From positions 1,371 through 65,370 of the forward strand of contig JAIETP010000018.1 of assembly GCA_019744975.1 (NCBI GenBank): DNA of 64,000 bases, in the 5' to 3' direction. The notes below the pieces were generated by a model. It was not told where the DNA came from and did not search any database. It saw only the letters and a list, made by a program, of their open reading frames with translations. Position 1 is the first letter of the stretch. Each line of letters starts with the position of its first letter. Shown here one piece after another: positions 437 through 14,278 of this stretch. The translations under genes were made by a program, and so were the position numbers. This DNA comes from Burkholderiales bacterium. GTDB lineage: Bacteria; Pseudomonadota; Gammaproteobacteria; Burkholderiales; SG8-41.

Positions 437-1711
437 ATGTCGGTAGCTATTATCGGCGGCGGTTACGCCGGCATGGCCGCGGCGGTGGAACTCGCCGCGC
501 GCGACATTCCGGTCACGGTGTTTGAAGCCGCGCCCGCACTCGGCGGCCGCGCGCGGCGCGTGACCCTCAACGACACTGCGCTCGACAACGGTCTGCATAT
601 CCTGATCGGCGCGTACTCGGAAACGCTGCGCCTGATCGAGAAGGTCGCATCGAAACGCGACCATTTCCTGCGGCTGCCGTTGACGCTGAATATTCACAAT
701 CGTTTCAGCCTGCGCGCGCCGAAGCTCCCTGCGCCACTGCATGTGGCCTGGGCACTGCTGACGGCAGAGGGCCTGAGCAGCACCGACAAACGCGCCGCCG
801 CAGGCTTCATGCAGGCGATGAAAAAACGCGGTTACCGCCTCGAACATGACTGCACAGTCGCCACCTTGCTTGCGGATAATTCGCAAGTATATGATTTAAT
901 TGAATATTTATGGTCTCCGCTGTGTGTCGCCGCGCTGAACACCCCCATGCAACGCGCTTCGGCGCAGGTCTTTCTCAATGTATTGCGTGACAGCCTCGGC
1001 GCCGGCCGCGCAGCGAGTGATCTGCTGCTGGCACGCATGGATCTCACCGCACTGTTTCCGAAACCGGCCGCGGATTATGTGCGGGCACGCGGTGGCCAGG
1101 TCGAAGCCGGCGCCACGGTTGAAGGCGTGACGCCGGATGGCAAGGGATTCAGCCTGCAAGTGCAAGGACATCAGCGGCACTTTGATCAGGTGATCTGCGC
1201 CGTCGCGCCACATCGCGCCGCCGACCTGCTCGCTGACATTCCCGCGCTCGCACCCGCGCGCCGGCAGATCGCAGCATTGCAGTACGAACCCATCCATTCC
1301 ATCTGGCTGCAGTTCGACGGCCGCCTTACCCTGCCCTCACCGATGATCGGCATCAGCGACAGTCCGGCGCAGTGGCTGTTCGACCGCGAGGCGATCTGCG
1401 GCCAGCGCGGCCTGATCGGCGCGGTGATCAGCGCATCCGGAGAACAAGTCGGTGAAACACAGGACGCGCTGGCGCAACGTGTGGTCGCCGATCTTGCAAA
1501 AAATTTCGGACCGCTGCCGCCGCTGCAATGGCATCGCGTGATCGCGGAAAAACGCGCGACCTTCAGTTGTACGCCGGACCTCGCCCGCCCTGCTGCCGTG
1601 ACCGCCTGTAAAAACTTTTTTCTCGCGGGTGATTACGTGGCCAGCGACTACCCCGCAACCATTGAGGCCGCGGTGCGCAGCGGGGTCACCGCGGCATGCC
1701 TGATTGAGTAA
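437..1711 (+). CDS. FAD-dependent amine-oxidase/phytoene-desaturase family protein, HpnE-like (hydroxysqualene dehydroxylase-like)
   Basis: N-terminal dinucleotide fold 'VAIIGGGYAGMAAAVELA..VTVFEAAPALGGRAR'. C-terminal 'FLAGDYV..YPATIEAAVRSG'. 424 aa. No hpnC/hpnD neighbours. Confidence 0.6.
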   Translation: MSVAIIGGGYAGMAAAVELAARDIPVTVFEAAPALGGRARRVTLNDTALDNGLHILIGAYSETLRLIEKVASKRDHFLRLPLTLNIHNRFSLRAPKLPAPLHVAWALLTAEGLSSTDKRAAAGFMQAMKKRGYRLEHDCTVATLLADNSQVYDLIEYLWSPLCVAALNTPMQRASAQVFLNVLRDSLGAGRAASDLLLARMDLTALFPKPAADYVRARGGQVEAGATVEGVTPDGKGFSLQVQGHQRHFDQVICAVAPHRAADLLADIPALAPARRQIAALQYEPIHSIWLQFDGRLTLPSPMIGISDSPAQWLFDREAICGQRGLIGAVISASGEQVGETQDALAQRVVADLAKNFGPLPPLQWHRVIAEKRATFSCTPDLARPAAVTACKNFFLAGDYVASDYPATIEAAVRSGVTAACLIE

Positions 1712-1754
1712 ATAGCAGTCGAACAGCTTCAGGAGCACAGCGCAAGGGGCGGCT

Positions 1755-2414
1755 TCAGTTTGTTCGATTGCAGTTCGTCATTAGTGCGCTGGTCATTCTT
1801 AAATTCACTAATGATCCTGTTTTTTTATAAATGTTGAAATCAAAAATATTCGGCCCGATATTGACCGTCGTACTCTCTCTTCCGGTTACCACTTCGCCAA
1901 AGCTGTCATGGGCAAAGCTGAAGGAAATCGAGCATGCGTAGCTGGCGACGCCTTTGTTGGTAACATAAATGAAGATCGAACTTCCAGGAGTTGAAGTGCG
2001 AAACGTTGGCATTGACGAGATGGGAGCGGGGGCGGCTTTTGATTTTGATTGGCACTTGTCAATAATAGCCGCGGCGTTATTGCAAACATTTCCCGTGTGA
2101 CATGAAACCCAATCCCCGACGGTATTACCTGAAGGGTCCACGCATTTTGTTTCCGTATCAATTTTCGGATTTACGACATAACTCCACCCCCCCTTCTTTT
2201 CCCCATATCGAATTTCGCATCTTTCGATAATGGAGTTGCCGTTGTGACATGTCCCGTCGTCCCGGCAAGACCGCCATCCTCCAACCGGGACTCCTGAAGG
2301 ATTGATGCACTGAGTCTCGTGATCTTTTTGAGGATTGACTCGATAACTCCAGCTCTGTGCGTCAACCGGAAATATCAAAACAAGAAAACCAATAAATATA
2401 AATGGGTTAATCAT
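1755..2414 (-). CDS. Secreted Cys-rich orphan protein: two tandem 46-aa four-Cys modules plus a C-terminal beta-rich domain
   Basis: ORF 1755..2489. The internal Met at 2414 gives a signal peptide 'MINPFIFIGFLVLIFPVDA|QS'. Modules 'WSYRVNPQKDHETQC..ERCE' and 'WSYVVNPKIDTETKC..DKCQ' share 23 of 46 positions by hand alignment. Lies in the low-GC islet. Confidence 0.6.
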   Translation of the reverse strand: MINPFIFIGFLVLIFPVDAQSWSYRVNPQKDHETQCINPSGVPVGGWRSCRDDGTCHNGNSIIERCEIRYGEKKGGWSYVVNPKIDTETKCVDPSGNTVGDWVSCHTGNVCNNAAAIIDKCQSKSKAAPAPISSMPTFRTSTPGSSIFIYVTNKGVASYACSISFSFAHDSFGEVVTGRESTTVNIGPNIFDFNIYKKTGSLVNLRMTSALMTNCNRTN

Positions 2415-2503
2415 TGCCCTATACATTTGCATCCCCCCGAAAAACAAGACAGCTATCAATAAAACTTTACCATTTACCGGAACATCCAAAACTTTTCAGT
2501 GAA

Positions 2504-2779
2504 TTAGCTTTCGCATTTCCCCATAGGGACAAAATGCCAGAATGCGTTACTTTGCTCCCCGATCCTTTTACATTCCTCTTCGCCGAGACCATCCCAGTCA
2601 AAGCATATCCGCTGCCCATTTCGGGTAGTAACATAACAAGCACCCGAAAAAAGGCTGGATGCGTCATTATTATTGCCCGGAGACATTTTTTCCTGTTTGA
2701 TTTTCTCAGCAACATCATTTACTAATTGCACTTCAGATTGATTGGAACTCATTTTCTGGCCTTTTTGGATTGTTGCCAT
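2504..2779 (-). CDS. Small Cys-rich orphan protein (about 82-91 aa, no signal peptide), hydrophilic N-part plus 4-Cys C-part
   Basis: Part of ORF 2504..3040. A GC hairpin at 2912-2932 interrupts the long version, so the start was moved to Met at 2779 (or 2752). C-part is 'ACYVTTRNGQRICFDWDGLGEEECKRIGEQSNAFWHFVPMGKCES'. The start is uncertain. Confidence 0.4.
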   Translation of the reverse strand: MATIQKGQKMSSNQSEVQLVNDVAEKIKQEKMSPGNNNDASSLFSGACYVTTRNGQRICFDWDGLGEEECKRIGEQSNAFWHFVPMGKCES

Positions 2780-2911
2780 TACCAAGTTAAGCTTCCATCT
2801 TTCTCGCAATCTAGTTTCATAAAATAATTTTCGATTCCCGATGCATTTTGATTTTTCTGAAAGTATTTGGTATGTATTTTCCTCATCATAAATCAATTGA
2901 GAAAAATGAAT

Positions 2912-2938
2912 CGCCCCGAGTTTTGAGGGGCGTCTTTT
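2912..2938 (+). terminator. GC hairpin with T tail (candidate intrinsic terminator) inside the low-GC islet
   Basis: 'cgcccc-gagttttga-ggggcg' followed by 'tctttt'. The reverse strand also has a delayed T run. Confidence 0.4.
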
Positions 2939-3246
2939 CGCAGCGAGATGGCCGATCACAGACTTCCAGTCCGTCATATTGACTTGTGACATTGACGCCG
3001 TCAGGCGGGAAAATCCCGTCCCGTTGATCCAAACCCCCACCCCTTTTCCAGATGAGAGATGAATTTAAAGGGAGGTAGTCCGCAGGGAACGAAGCCTCGG
3101 GGACTTGCTTCCGGAGAATCCAAAATCTCAAAGCAGCGCAGGCAGAGTCCGTAAAATGATAAGCCCTCCCCATTATGATGCGCTCCATTCGGTCTACGTA
3201 CAGACGCGGCGTTATAATCGAAGTACTTTCATCGCAGGAGTGAAAC

Positions 3247-4902
3247 GTGTCTGAACGCGAAGCCATGGAGTACGACGTCGTCATCGTCGGCGCAGGTCCC
3301 GCCGGTCTCGGCGCAGCGATCCGCATGAAGCAACTGGCGGCGGCCTTCGGCAAAAACCGTGAAGTCAGCGTCTGCGTACTGGAAAAAGGCTCCGAGGTCG
3401 GTGCGCACATTCTCTCCGGCGCGGTGATGGACCCGCGCGCACTGAATGAACTGATCCCGGACTGGAAGCAAAAAGACGCGCCGCTGAATGTCCCGGTCAG
3501 CGAAGACCGTTTCATGTTCCTCACCGAAACCGGCGCACTCAAGGTGCCCGGCGCGCTGCTGCCCGCCTGTTTCCAGAACCACGGCAACTATGTCGTCAGC
3601 CTCGCCAATGTCACGCGTTGGCTGGGCCAGCAGGCTGAAGGCCTGGGCGTGGAAATTTTCCCCGGCTTTGCCGCCGCGGAAGTGCTGTTCGATGAGAACG
3701 GTGCCGTCCGCGGTGTCGCCACCGGCGATATGGGTGTCGGGAAGGATGGGCAACCGACGGATGCGCACCAGCCGGGCATGGAGTTACACGCCAAATACAC
3801 CTTTTTCGCTGAAGGCTGCCGCGGCCACCTCGGCAAACAGCTGCAGGAAAAATTCAAGCTGCGTGAAGGCGCCGATCCGCAGGTCTATGGCATCGGTCTG
3901 AAGGAACTCTGGGAAATCAAGCCGGAGAAACACCAGCCCGGCCTGGTGATCCACACCGCCGGCTGGCCTCTGCAAAGCGACACCTACGGCGGCTCGTTTT
4001 TTTACCACCTTGAAGACAATATGGTCGCCATCGGGTTTGTCGTCGGCCTCGGTTACAGCAATCCTTATTTGAGTCCATACGAGGAATTCCAGCGTTACAA
4101 AACGCATCCGGCCATCAAGTCATTCCTCGAAGGCGGGAAACGCATCGCCTACGGTGCGCGGGCGATTTCCGCCGGCGGCCTGCAGTCACTGCCGAAACTC
4201 ATCTTCCCCGGCGGCTGCCTGATCGGCGACGATGCCGGTTTTCTCAATGCCTCGCGCATCAAGGGCAGCCATGCCGCGATCAAGTCGGGCATGCTGGCGG
4301 CGGAAGCGGCCTTCGATGCGCTGGCCGTTGAAACACCGGCGGCGGAACTGACCGCCTATCCAGAATCCTTCAAGTCGAGCTGGCTGCACGAGGAACTTTA
4401 CCGCGCGCGCAACTTCAAACCGTGGATGAGCAAAGGCCTCTACACCGGCACGCTGATGGTGGGCATCGACCAGGTGCTGTTCCGCGGCAAGGCGCCATGG
4501 ACGCTGCACCACGACCATTCGGACCACGAAACGCTGCAGCGCAAGACTGAATGTACGCCGATCGATTATCCGAAACCCGATGGCGTGATCACCTTCGACC
4601 GCATGTCTTCGGTATTCATTTCCAATACCAACCACAACGAAGACCAGCCGGTGCACCTGACGCTGAAGGACGCGTCGGTACCGGTCAATGTCAACCTCGA
4701 ACTCTATGACGCGCCGGAGCAGCGTTACTGCCCGGCCGGCGTCTACGAGATCGTGCGTGATGACAACGGGGCCAATCCACGGCTGCAGATCAACGCGCAG
4801 AACTGCGTACACTGCAAGACCTGTGACATCAAGGACCCGACGCAGAACATCGTCTGGGTCACACCTGAGGGTGGCGGCGGCCCGAATTACCCGAACATGT
4901 AA
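3247..4902 (+). CDS. Electron-transfer flavoprotein-ubiquinone oxidoreductase (ETF-QO)
   Basis: GTG start with 'aggag' RBS. '[18 protein letters not shown]' FAD fold. C-terminal 4Fe-4S region '[12 protein letters not shown]' and '[12 protein letters not shown]' tail typical of ETF-QO. Confidence 0.95.
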
Positions 4903-12472: not shown

Positions 12473-14278
12473 TCAGTGCCCAGCATACATGCCGTCGATT
12501 TCGGCGTTGAATTTTTCCATGACCTTGGCCCGTTTCAGTTTCATCGTCGGCGTCAGCAGCCCGTTTTCCACGGTCCAGGGATCCAGCGTCACGGTCACCC
12601 GTCGCACCTGCGCATAACCCGGAAACTCGGTGATCTGCGCCGCGATACGCTTGAGTATGGCTTTTTCCGCCTGCGCGGAGCGCGGTGCACCGCCATCGAG
12701 GCCCGATGCCGCCGCAAGTTTCTGCCAGTGGTCGGCGTTCAGCACCGTCATCACCGTGAGGAAGGGTTTGCCCTCGCCGAGCAGCATCACCTGATCAAAC
12801 AGTGGATCGCGGGCAATCGCCGCCTCCATGTCGCCAGGCGGTACTTTTTCGCCGTTGGACAGCACGATCACATCCTTCAGCCGTCCGGTAATGAACAAAT
12901 GGCCCTGGTCGCCGAGGCGTCCGGTATCGCCGGAGTTGAGCCAGCCGTCAGGCTGGATCATCGCCCTGGTGGCTTCTTCATTGCCCCAGTAACCGAGCAT
13001 CACGTTGGGCCCCTTGATCATCACCGCGCCCTTGTCGCCGATTTTGACCTGGACTCCGGGTATTGGCTGACCGACGCTTGCCGGAATGTTGTGGTCGGGA
13101 CAGTTGGCCGTGGCGATGGGACTGGTCTCGGTAAGCCCATAACCTTGCAGGATCGGCAGTCCGAGGCCGATGAAAATTTTCGAGATGTCGGCCGACAGTG
13201 CGGCACCACCCGACAAGGCATAACGCAGGCGTCCGCCGAGACGCGCCAGCACCTTGGCCGCGACCAGCTTGTTGAGCGCCGGCCACAGCAGGAACGACGG
13301 CAGCCACGGCCCGCGGCCCTGCGCGTGTTCAAAACGCGCATAACCGACCGCTGCAGCCAACAGGAACAGTTTTTTGCGCAGCGGCGAACCTTCATCCAGC
13401 TTGGCGCGGATGGTGCCCCAGATGCGCTCATAAATGCGCGGCACCGAAATCAGCATCGTCGGGCGGATGGTCTGCAGGTCTTCGCCGAGCTGCTGGATCG
13501 AGCGCGCATAGGCGGTGGTCGAACCCGCCATCACCGTCAGGTAATAGCCGCAGGTGCGCTCAAAGGTGTGTGACAGCGGCAGGAAGGACATGAAAATGTC
13601 GTCATGTCCGGTGGCCAGCACGCTCAACGCGGCTTCGGTGTTCGACAGGATGTTGGTATGCGACAGCATCACGCCCTTGGGCCGGCCGGTGGTGCCGGAA
13701 GTGTAGACGATGGTCGCCAGCGTGCCGCCGTCGCGCGCCAGGTGCCGGGTCGCGCCGCCGTCATCCGGCAGCCAGTCGCCGATCCATTTCAGGCGCACAT
13801 CGCTGCCCGCTGCCGGCGCAGCATTGACGCTGAGAAAACGCACTACAGCGCCCAACTGGCCAATCACCTCCTGCAGACCCTGCCATTGCTCCTGGCCGTC
13901 GATCAGCAGCACCTTGCAGCCGGCGTTGTTGATGATATAGGCAACGTTGTCGCAGCGATCCTGGGTATACAGCGGCACCACCACCAGCCCGAGGCCCAGT
14001 GCAGCCTGGTCGAAGACCACCCATTCCGGCGAATTGCGCAGCATCACCGCGACGCGGTCGCCGGCTTGCAAACCTTCGCTTTCCAGCGCCGCCTGCCAGC
14101 GCGCGATCTGGCGGTCGATCTGCGCCCAGGTGTAATCGCGCCAGTTGCCGTGCTGCTCGTTGTAGGCCTTGTAGGCAACGATGTCCGGCGTGCGTTTCAC
14201 GCGTTCGCGAAACAGGCCGTCGAGCGTGCCCGCTGCCGCCATCGGAATGACGTGCGATGTATCGTTGTTTTTATTCAT
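12473..14278 (-). CDS. fadD: Long-chain acyl-CoA synthetase (AMP-forming)
   Basis: AMP-binding signature 'YTSGTTGRPKGVMLSH'. 'GYGLTETS', 'GWLNSGDTG', 'PTMKLKR'. 601 aa. Confidence 0.9.
   Translation of the reverse strand: MNKNNDTSHVIPMAAAGTLDGLFRERVKRTPDIVAYKAYNEQHGNWRDYTWAQIDRQIARWQAALESEGLQAGDRVAVMLRNSPEWVVFDQAALGLGLVVVPLYTQDRCDNVAYIINNAGCKVLLIDGQEQWQGLQEVIGQLGAVVRFLSVNAAPAAGSDVRLKWIGDWLPDDGGATRHLARDGGTLATIVYTSGTTGRPKGVMLSHTNILSNTEAALSVLATGHDDIFMSFLPLSHTFERTCGYYLTVMAGSTTAYARSIQQLGEDLQTIRPTMLISVPRIYERIWGTIRAKLDEGSPLRKKLFLLAAAVGYARFEHAQGRGPWLPSFLLWPALNKLVAAKVLARLGGRLRYALSGGAALSADISKIFIGLGLPILQGYGLTETSPIATANCPDHNIPASVGQPIPGVQVKIGDKGAVMIKGPNVMLGYWGNEEATRAMIQPDGWLNSGDTGRLGDQGHLFITGRLKDVIVLSNGEKVPPGDMEAAIARDPLFDQVMLLGEGKPFLTVMTVLNADHWQKLAAASGLDGGAPRSAQAEKAILKRIAAQITEFPGYAQVRRVTVTLDPWTVENGLLTPTMKLKRAKVMEKFNAEIDGMYAGH

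Follow-up and report, generated by a model that had tools for sequence, protein, structure and literature searches.

Small, integrase-less genomic islets that carry ORFan genes are recognized by an atypical guanine-plus-cytosine (GC) content, by their absence from sister species in which the flanks are conserved, and by a variable insertion spot that holds one or two genes of unknown function. At the protein level, CBM1 and hevein/CBM18 are small disulfide-bonded carbohydrate-binding modules borne on Pro/Ser/Thr linkers. Here we describe a locus with likeness to both, a low-GC islet lying between hpnE and etfQO in a Burkholderiales bacterium (contig JAIETP010000018.1, assembly GCA_019744975.1). 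All coordinates refer to the window, the 64,000-nt stretch of this contig that was analyzed. The islet shares each of the features just listed for ORFan islets and carries gene A, for a predicted secreted Cys-rich protein, and upstream of it a small open reading frame (ORF), B. We favor, with a confidence only slightly above even that applies to the reading as a whole, the interpretation that the islet is a recently acquired one-gene cassette in which A is a secreted, non-enzymatic protein of the binding type and B is an unproven passenger.

Acquisition of the islet at a variable junction

The junction was compared across 40 species of the same genus, 29 of which provided readable loci. Orthologs of hpnE were found in 35 of the 40 congeners (70-88% identity), and etfQO (84-92% identical) follows hpnE directly at every readable locus, with an intervening gap of 54-355 bp in 27 of the 29 as opposed to 1535 bp in the window. 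The shortest of these gaps contain little beyond a conserved etfQO promoter block, GGGCG(C/T)TATAAT...GGAG. Since this block starts only at about position 3201 in the window, the approximate right edge of the DNA conserved with congeners, some 1.49 kb (1712-3200) is extra. The 1494-bp islet DNA had no match in the 40 congeners, protein A had none in 60 relatives, and a hidden Markov model of its C-terminal domain, which scores A itself at 1.8e-33, had none in 350 genomes of the order; no second copy of the islet is present in its own genome.

The composition of the islet is equally distinctive. Region 1712-3246 has a GC content of 45.1% and segment 1712-2911 one of 43.0%, against 60.5% for the genome (a 3.69-Mb assembly in a 44-contig draft), in which 1.2-kb windows have a standard deviation of 3.1%; the segment thus lies 5.7 standard deviations under the genome mean, in the lowest 0.03% of such windows. 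Measured over 200 nt at a time, the GC content is 0.60-0.68 in the flanks but drops to 0.32-0.51 in the islet. The base counts given in the original prediction (24/60 GC in 2401-2460, 36/60 in 13621-13680) proved exact, and profile matches bear out the naming of the flanks as HpnE on the left and ETF-QO (electron-transfer flavoprotein-ubiquinone oxidoreductase) on the right. Horizontal acquisition of the islet, as proposed in the original prediction, is supported by this extreme composition together with the junction comparison that the prediction had suggested, in which the islet was present in 0 of 40 congeners and the flanks were conserved and adjacent in 29 of 29.

The junction itself is variable. 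In two congeners an unrelated gene for a membrane protein of about 240 aa (DUF3592/PF12158; expectation values, E, of 2.5e-13 and 2.2e-5) occupies exactly the same position, and the longer gaps in other congeners hold palindromes resembling repetitive extragenic palindromic (REP) elements; the recurrence of the DUF3592 gene marks the junction as a recurrent landing or retention site. One copy of that gene (locus L024, congener G020) is host-like in GC content at 0.62, and the other (L021, G027) stands at about 0.48. The REP-like element (…CCGGATTACGGCCTGCGGCC…CATCCGGGCTAC…) is present in one to four copies, which widen the gap from 54 to 355 bp, at loci L007-L012 of congeners G012, G007, G034, G023, G011 and G003.

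The nearest transposase gene, IS30-like with HTH_38 and rve domains, is located past prpF, more than 2.8 kb away; it was seen on JGI contig Ga0438479_0003 (L097, 6629-6735), upstream of hpnE and beyond the 5' end of the window. In many congeners the contig ends within 0.6-2 kb of hpnE, and a repeated element upstream of hpnE probably breaks these assemblies. Comparably low-GC regions number only 13 across the 3.69-Mb genome. The 12 other than the islet (47% GC or less; one, for example, at G000 C2:211401-215801) contain no paralog of A or B. In one of these patches, genes for YD/RHS-repeat proteins have a low-GC tail of the kind usually seen at the tips of polymorphic toxins; ORFan genes and a putative methyltransferase/restriction-like block occur in further patches.

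Domain architecture of protein A

The architecture originally read for protein A, namely a signal peptide, two tandem four-Cys modules, a Pro/Ser/Thr linker and a beta-rich C-terminal domain, was recovered from the sequence and in an AlphaFold2 model built on a 17-row alignment, for which the mean predicted local distance difference test score (pLDDT) was 90.3. The two modules are 45 aa each and identical at 23 of 45 positions. Each is modeled as a beta-beta-beta-alpha unit with a pLDDT of about 90-97, both with the same predicted fold, and the module pair modeled alone reached a pLDDT of 90.7 and a predicted template modeling score of 0.71. The linker is marked by a dip in pLDDT to 67-81 at model residues 101-120, beyond which the C-terminal domain is modeled with seven strands at a pLDDT of 92-98.

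The N-terminus, assessed by eye, has the n-h-c layout of a signal peptide with an AxA-type site (MYR-AMINPFIFIGFLVLIF-PVDA/QS, the slash marking the probable cleavage), and in at least eight relatives of A (P0004, P0005, P0006, P0011, P0012, P0026, P0039 and P0046) module 1 similarly starts 1-2 residues past an AxA-type site. Protein A is predicted to be exported by Sec and probably undergoes DsbA-type oxidation, its 10 Cys forming five disulfides distributed over the three domains.

The gene was first placed at 1755-2414; its stop stands, whereas the start is better assigned to ATG 2426 (MYRAMINPF...), which has a GGGGGG Shine-Dalgarno motif 6 nt upstream and provides an Arg in the n-region of the signal peptide. 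ATG 2432 would have zero spacing to this motif, ATG 2414 has a spacing of 2 nt, and the farther TTG 2489 would add a second hydrophobic stretch. Gene callers in other assemblies give A as 223, 225 or 244 aa, and the mature protein is the same with any of these starts. A scan of the islet for minus-strand sigma-70 promoters found none, and Rfam returned only a chance snoRNA match to it (E 0.76).

Relatives of protein A define two shuffled domain families

An exhaustive phmmer search with A against 1.84 billion representative proteins (E of 1e-3 or lower) returned 43 proteins, including two repetitive giants (P0021 and P0027) that are probably spurious. This leaves about 40 remote relatives, so that of the pair originally described as two orphan genes only B is an orphan. 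The matches split between residues 1-102 and residues 105-198 of mature A, and the full architecture was found only in P0004 (221 aa, 45% identical). Since relatives match one part of A or the other, the module and the sandwich constitute independent domain families that have been shuffled.

The module occurs in two or three tandem copies that make up complete small secreted proteins (P0005, P0006, P0007, P0014, P0037 and the protein of locus L035), N-terminal to other C-terminal domains (P0011, P0012, P0026, P0039, P0046 and P0047), and at the C-terminus of P0030, P0033, P0034, P0041 and P0043. Alignment of 23 modules showed W2, Y4, C16, C30, C36, I42 and C46 to be invariant and T14, G21 and G25 to be nearly so; aromatic and acidic residues are conserved at W2, Y4, W27, D11, E13 and D33. 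Both modules of A fit the WxYxVNP...C four-Cys spacing of the family, as judged from this alignment and from a DNA pattern described below. The C-terminal domain, for its part, can stand by itself, forming secreted proteins some 105 aa long (P0008, P0016, P0023, P0036, P0038, P0040, P0044 and others), or can close longer proteins, of roughly 300 aa, in which a Pro-rich linker precedes it (P0010, P0013, P0018, P0019, P0031, P0035, P0029, P0017, P0020 and P0042). In an alignment of 25 C-terminal domains no variation is seen at N25 or G45, conservation of C33 and C87 reaches 90% or more, and the domain of A fits the family motifs GSxIxIYAxN...YxC...W/YxxDxFG...VNLR...CN.

Both families are very rare in genomes. 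A word-index search of 5.8 billion proteins matched A only to itself, and a profile search of the same index (profile A4) retrieved 6 proteins only. Genomes were also searched with a degenerate DNA pattern describing the module, which as a validation gave exactly 2 matches in the window and 0 in 100 shuffles. The pattern found 1 true locus in 185,579 species genomes (L035, from a Burkholderiales metagenome-assembled genome) and 1 true match in JGI metagenome contigs (L043), its other matches being due to chance; it had 0 matches in IMG/VR. Neither A nor B had a match in the plasmid and phage collections.

The contigs that carry the relatives are short (0.9-8 kb), and the relatives on them are solitary genes between unrelated, often housekeeping, genes. 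P0016 lies between recR and ksgA, P0013 beside the end of gyrB, and P0008 amid hypothetical genes and a gene for an Excalibur-domain protein. Several are lower in GC content than their flanks (0.49 against 0.61, 0.53 against 0.60 and 0.45 against 0.54), in hosts that range from 39% to 65% GC. This pattern of context and composition fits a sporadic horizontal spread of the relatives as single-gene cassettes. Two further contexts were recorded. The sole genome-derived relative, a 136-aa two-module secreted protein, is encoded at L035 (1051-3431 of JANPDI010000005.1), where its gene lies 370 nt downstream of and on the same strand as a gene for a 532-aa S8 subtilisin-like peptidase, with a gene for a 585-aa caspase-like protein also nearby; this context may hint at a protease-related role. 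At L049 (203-1306), P0007 is encoded directly downstream, on the same strand, of a CAP12-PCTIR gene with a TIR domain, which is defense-associated.

ORF B as a candidate gene

The small four-Cys ORF originally noted upstream of A does exist, on the same strand and 77 nt from the A start, while its status as a gene divides the gene callers: it is called as 82 aa (Logan), as 162 or 178 aa (NCBI, JGI), or replaced by an antisense ORF of 63 aa. The last of these calls (2534-2725, plus strand) is found in GCA_020051055.1, a second NCBI assembly from the same population, and occupies the strand opposite the Cys-rich part of B, which is not called there. The likelier starts, each with a weak sequence resembling a Shine-Dalgarno motif, are ATG 2752 (82 aa, with AAGG 7 nt upstream) and ATG 2686 (60 aa, with AGGA 4 nt upstream). 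Over its last 270 nt, and only downstream of about position 2779, B shows a coding-like purine periodicity similar to that of A; a frame of 91 codons alone was matched by 57% of shuffles. Since B has no signal peptide, its Cys would form no disulfides by the usual route.

No homolog of B was found in the word index, in two 400-genome six-frame scans of the class, in plasmids, phages or the PDB, or in its own genome, and Pfam gave only ARMET_N at E 0.084, below threshold. Furthermore, no B-like ORF was present near A-family genes in 12 loci (best E 0.7), of which only about seven extend for at least 500 nt on the side in question.

The strongest alternative to the one-gene cassette, possible but on balance doubtful, is that B is a genuine cytoplasmic protein of 162-178 aa that starts at 2992 or 3040 and is co-transcribed with A, in which case the islet would be a two-gene operon. 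The NCBI and JGI callers give precisely these lengths, the long frame was reached in only 0.75% of shuffles, and just 165-210 nt or so of non-coding DNA would be left before the etfQO promoter. However, no Shine-Dalgarno motif precedes ATG 2992 or ATG 2977 and that of GTG 3040 has zero spacing, while the stretch 2780-2899 has a GC content of 28-35% at each of the three codon positions and lacks purine periodicity. A hairpin with a T-run (2912-2932) also falls inside the frame, the Logan callers stop at 82 aa, and the protein has no homolog. This hairpin is the sole G+C hairpin of the islet (-14.2 kcal/mol; minus-strand z -2.2, plus-strand z -1.0), was not called by a consensus terminator scan because of its 9-nt loop, and is a weak candidate for a bidirectional terminator that could stop transcripts running on from hpnE (plus strand) or a minus-strand transcript that begins upstream. 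Taking B in any of its forms, we consider it marginally more probable that some product is made from the frame than that none is.

Table 1. Coordinates of the islet, its genes and domains, and its flanks in the window.
Feature	Coordinates	Strand	Basis
hpnE (hydroxysqualene dehydroxylase), left flank	437..1711	+	TIGR03467 1.7e-136, PF01593
Inserted low-GC islet, ~1.49 kb, species-specific	1712..3200	.	GC content, congener comparison
Gene A, 223-aa precursor	1755..2426 (stop codon 1755-1757)	-	ORF translation
C-terminal beta-sandwich of A, ~85 aa, 2 conserved Cys, ends ...CNRTN	1758..2012	-	25-domain alignment
Pro/Ser/Lys-rich linker of A, QSKSKAAPAPISS	2013..2051	-	Sequence and pLDDT dip
Cys module 2 of A, WSYVVNPKIDTETKC...IIDKC, 4 Cys	2052..2186	-	DNA pattern
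Cys module 1 of A, WSYRVNPQKDHETQC...IIERC, 4 Cys	2217..2351	-	DNA pattern, 23-module alignment
Sec-type signal peptide of A, MYRAMINPFIFIGFLVLIFPVDA, probable cleavage VDA/QS	2358..2426	-	Read from sequence
ORF B, short form, 91 aa, 4 Cys in C-terminal part, no signal peptide	2504..2779	-	ORF translation
B frame continued upstream, open as far as GTG 3040	2780..3040	-	186 codons stop to stop
G+C hairpin CGCCCC-N9-GGGGCG, T-runs on both strands	2912..2932	.	Folding energy
etfQO promoter and 5' untranslated region, GCGGCGTTATAAT, -10 box 3213-3218	3201..3246	+	Same block in congeners
ETF-ubiquinone oxidoreductase gene, right flank	3247..4902	+	PF05187 7e-53, PF21162 8e-45

Functional interpretation

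In the one-gene cassette that we favor, the foreign DNA would have landed in the variable intergenic spot between hpnE and etfQO. Its product, A, would be exported by Sec and fold in the oxidizing periplasm or beyond into three small domains, with the two 45-aa four-Cys modules joined through the Pro/Ser linker to the 85-aa two-Cys beta-sandwich, and would bind its target as an extracellular or periplasmic protein of the lectin or adhesin type in which the Cys modules serve as ligand-binding heads. ORF B would have come on the same DNA and be at best a lineage-restricted small cytoplasmic protein. The suggestion of a binding role draws on the lack of a catalytic signature (no catalytic motif or enzyme-like domain was recognized in A or in any relative), on the conserved aromatic and acidic positions of the modules, on their tandem use and on their tethering by Pro/Ser linkers to other small secreted domains. 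From these features we infer that, of the options raised in the original prediction, an adhesin-like role is the most plausible.

Several observations weigh against this interpretation. The binding function rests on the absence of an enzyme signature and on analogy, and the contexts of the relatives, being short and heterogeneous (S8 peptidase, TIR, Excalibur), give no verdict on an effector or inhibitor role. The islet contains or adjoins no tRNA gene, credible flanking repeats or integrase, leaving the mechanism of insertion without a signature. Finally, a B frame of 186 codons arose in so few of 2000 dinucleotide shuffles of region 2490-3205 as to suggest that B is more than noise.

Two other functions were weighed for A. 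It is unlikely, in our assessment, that A is a periplasmic inhibitor of a protease or lysozyme, or an orphan immunity protein against an effector that acts in the periplasm. A protein that is small, disulfide-rich, predicted to be Sec-exported and non-enzymatic, and sporadic on islets would suit such a role, as would the location of the L035 two-module gene behind a subtilisin gene and the finding that the best fold matches of the C-terminal domain are the periplasmic proteins CsgC and CsgH. Yet the protease neighbor is a single case among contexts that otherwise differ, the CsgC match is weak (E 4e-3, template modeling (TM) score 0.48) and is not joined by any Pfam CsgC match in the relatives, and no effector gene lies nearby.

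Just as hard to sustain, and if anything a shade less probable, is a two-gene competition module, in which A would be a bacteriocin-like or polymorphic toxin and B its immunity protein or partner, or the two would follow a leader-plus-core scheme. The original prediction had paired B with A in this manner, and the two are indeed co-directional on foreign DNA, separated by only 77 nt; moreover, a frame as long as that of B would seldom arise by chance, and the modules are joined to varying C-terminal domains (P0046, P0011, P0012/26/39/47), as is seen in polymorphic toxins. The pairing is not upheld by the co-occurrence of the genes, a check that had been proposed alongside it: B never accompanies A homologs at loci with usable flanks and has no relative of its own. 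Immunity genes normally follow the toxin gene, whereas B lies upstream of A, and its annotation is inconsistent, one assembly carrying no B call. No toxin, bacteriocin, immunity or defense family was matched in Pfam, NCBIfam, PHROGs or PADLOC, and no toxin or bacteriocin domain in the PDB or BFVD. The islet consists of A and B only, flanked by hpnE and etfQO, and holds no genes for the maturation, modification or ABC-type export of a ribosomally synthesized and post-translationally modified peptide. In addition, both domain types of A make up complete small secreted proteins by themselves (P0005-7, P0008, P0016 and others).

An origin of the islet through chimeric assembly or contamination, which its extreme composition in a 44-contig draft might suggest, is very improbable and is refuted by the recurrence of both junctions, identical, in seven further contigs, among them a 393,836-bp JGI contig and independent Logan assemblies. 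These contigs, drawn from NCBI assemblies, two JGI metagenomes and several Logan runs, are 100% identical across the islet. Because all eight copies are identical, they offer no polymorphism for a dN/dS test of selection.

Significance of the locus

The novelty here lies in two newly defined domain families and possibly in a new mini-fold. Both families are compact, confidently modeled and disulfide-rich, and neither is represented in Pfam, NCBIfam or the PDB; they are reasonable targets for structure determination and binding screens. The locus also provides a clean before-and-after case of a small foreign cassette entering a chromosome without mobility machinery, as sister species show the junction empty, occupied by REP-like elements or occupied by an unrelated gene. 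It opens no long-standing question, and comparable islets with an orphan secreted Cys-rich protein are frequent.

A broader proposal can be put forward only tentatively, since we think it clearly less probable than not. The 45-aa four-Cys beta-beta-beta-alpha module would represent a new disulfide-stabilized fold, a transferable head for ligand binding. It would belong to a small network, not recognized before, of secreted proteins with shuffled domains in environmental bacteria, with at least five architectures that share the module or the two-Cys sandwich, and members of this network would pass between distant hosts of 39-65% GC as single-gene cassettes that enter intergenic hotspots without a mobility gene. 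Under the same joint proposal, B could be a co-transferred cytoplasmic factor for this particular cassette.

Comparison with known folds and systems

The original prediction had recognized no characterized family in A, and our searches agree. No Pfam or NCBIfam model was matched by A or by 39 relatives, PHROGs and PADLOC were likewise empty, PDB profile searches gave nothing significant, and the Foldseek search of the AlphaFold model, which had been recommended as a check, gave no PDB or BFVD match to the whole of A at E 1e-3 and hence no recognized family. The partner domains of the relatives (A9, A10 and A11, putative beta-trefoils) similarly had no significant PDB match, the best being a ryanodine-receptor beta-trefoil at E 0.16.

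The best PDB matches pair the C-terminal domain of A with generic immunoglobulin (Ig)-like sandwiches, namely CsgC (2xsk), CsgH and the barrel domains of transglutaminases. Like CsgC and CsgH (PDB 2xsk and 2n59; Pfam Tafi-CsgC), the domain and its stand-alone relatives, which are about 105 aa long including a signal peptide, are seven-strand Ig-like sandwiches of the same size. In contrast to CsgC, the domain lacks the CxC motif and has instead two distant conserved Cys, C33 and C87; the Foldseek match to 2xsk, despite a probability of 1.0, is no better than that to the transglutaminase domains. Membership in the CsgC/CsgH group was rejected, as neither A nor its 39 relatives matched the Pfam family, no csg genes flank A, and the likeness is one of generic fold only.

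For the module pair, the top Foldseek match was YegP/UPF0339 (DUF1508, PF07411; PDB 2k49), which is likewise built from tandem beta-beta-beta-alpha units of about 50 aa. DUF1508 proteins are cytoplasmic and Cys-free, whereas the A modules are predicted to be exported and have four invariant Cys. This candidate was also set aside, the match having an E of 0.17, a probability of 0.14 and a TM score of 0.24 and hhalign giving the module profile a probability of 0.8% against 19 DUF1508 repeats from genomes of the order; PF07411 was not found in the genome itself. The modules share a local motif with kringles (ET-x-C-x-N-P-x-G-x-x-x-G-x-W, compared with NYCRNPxGExxGPW of HGF kringles), although a kringle (PF00051) comprises about 80 aa and six Cys and the modules comprise 45 aa and four Cys in a helix plus a three-stranded sheet. 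The kringle assignment was rejected in turn: it derives from a 16-residue PDB profile match with a per-domain E of about 31, Pfam Kringle was not matched, and no kringle was among the Foldseek matches.

In general layout the modules show an analogy to CBM1 and hevein/CBM18, which are exported units of 35-50 aa that have at least four Cys, conserved aromatics and a small beta-sheet, used in tandem and tethered by linkers as the A modules are; no match to them in sequence or fold was found for the modules. At the level of the locus, an integrase-less ORFan islet that carries a secreted Cys-rich protein is a familiar kind of feature, and this islet differs from others of its class in that its cargo is not a singleton but is composed of two recurrent, previously undescribed domain families.

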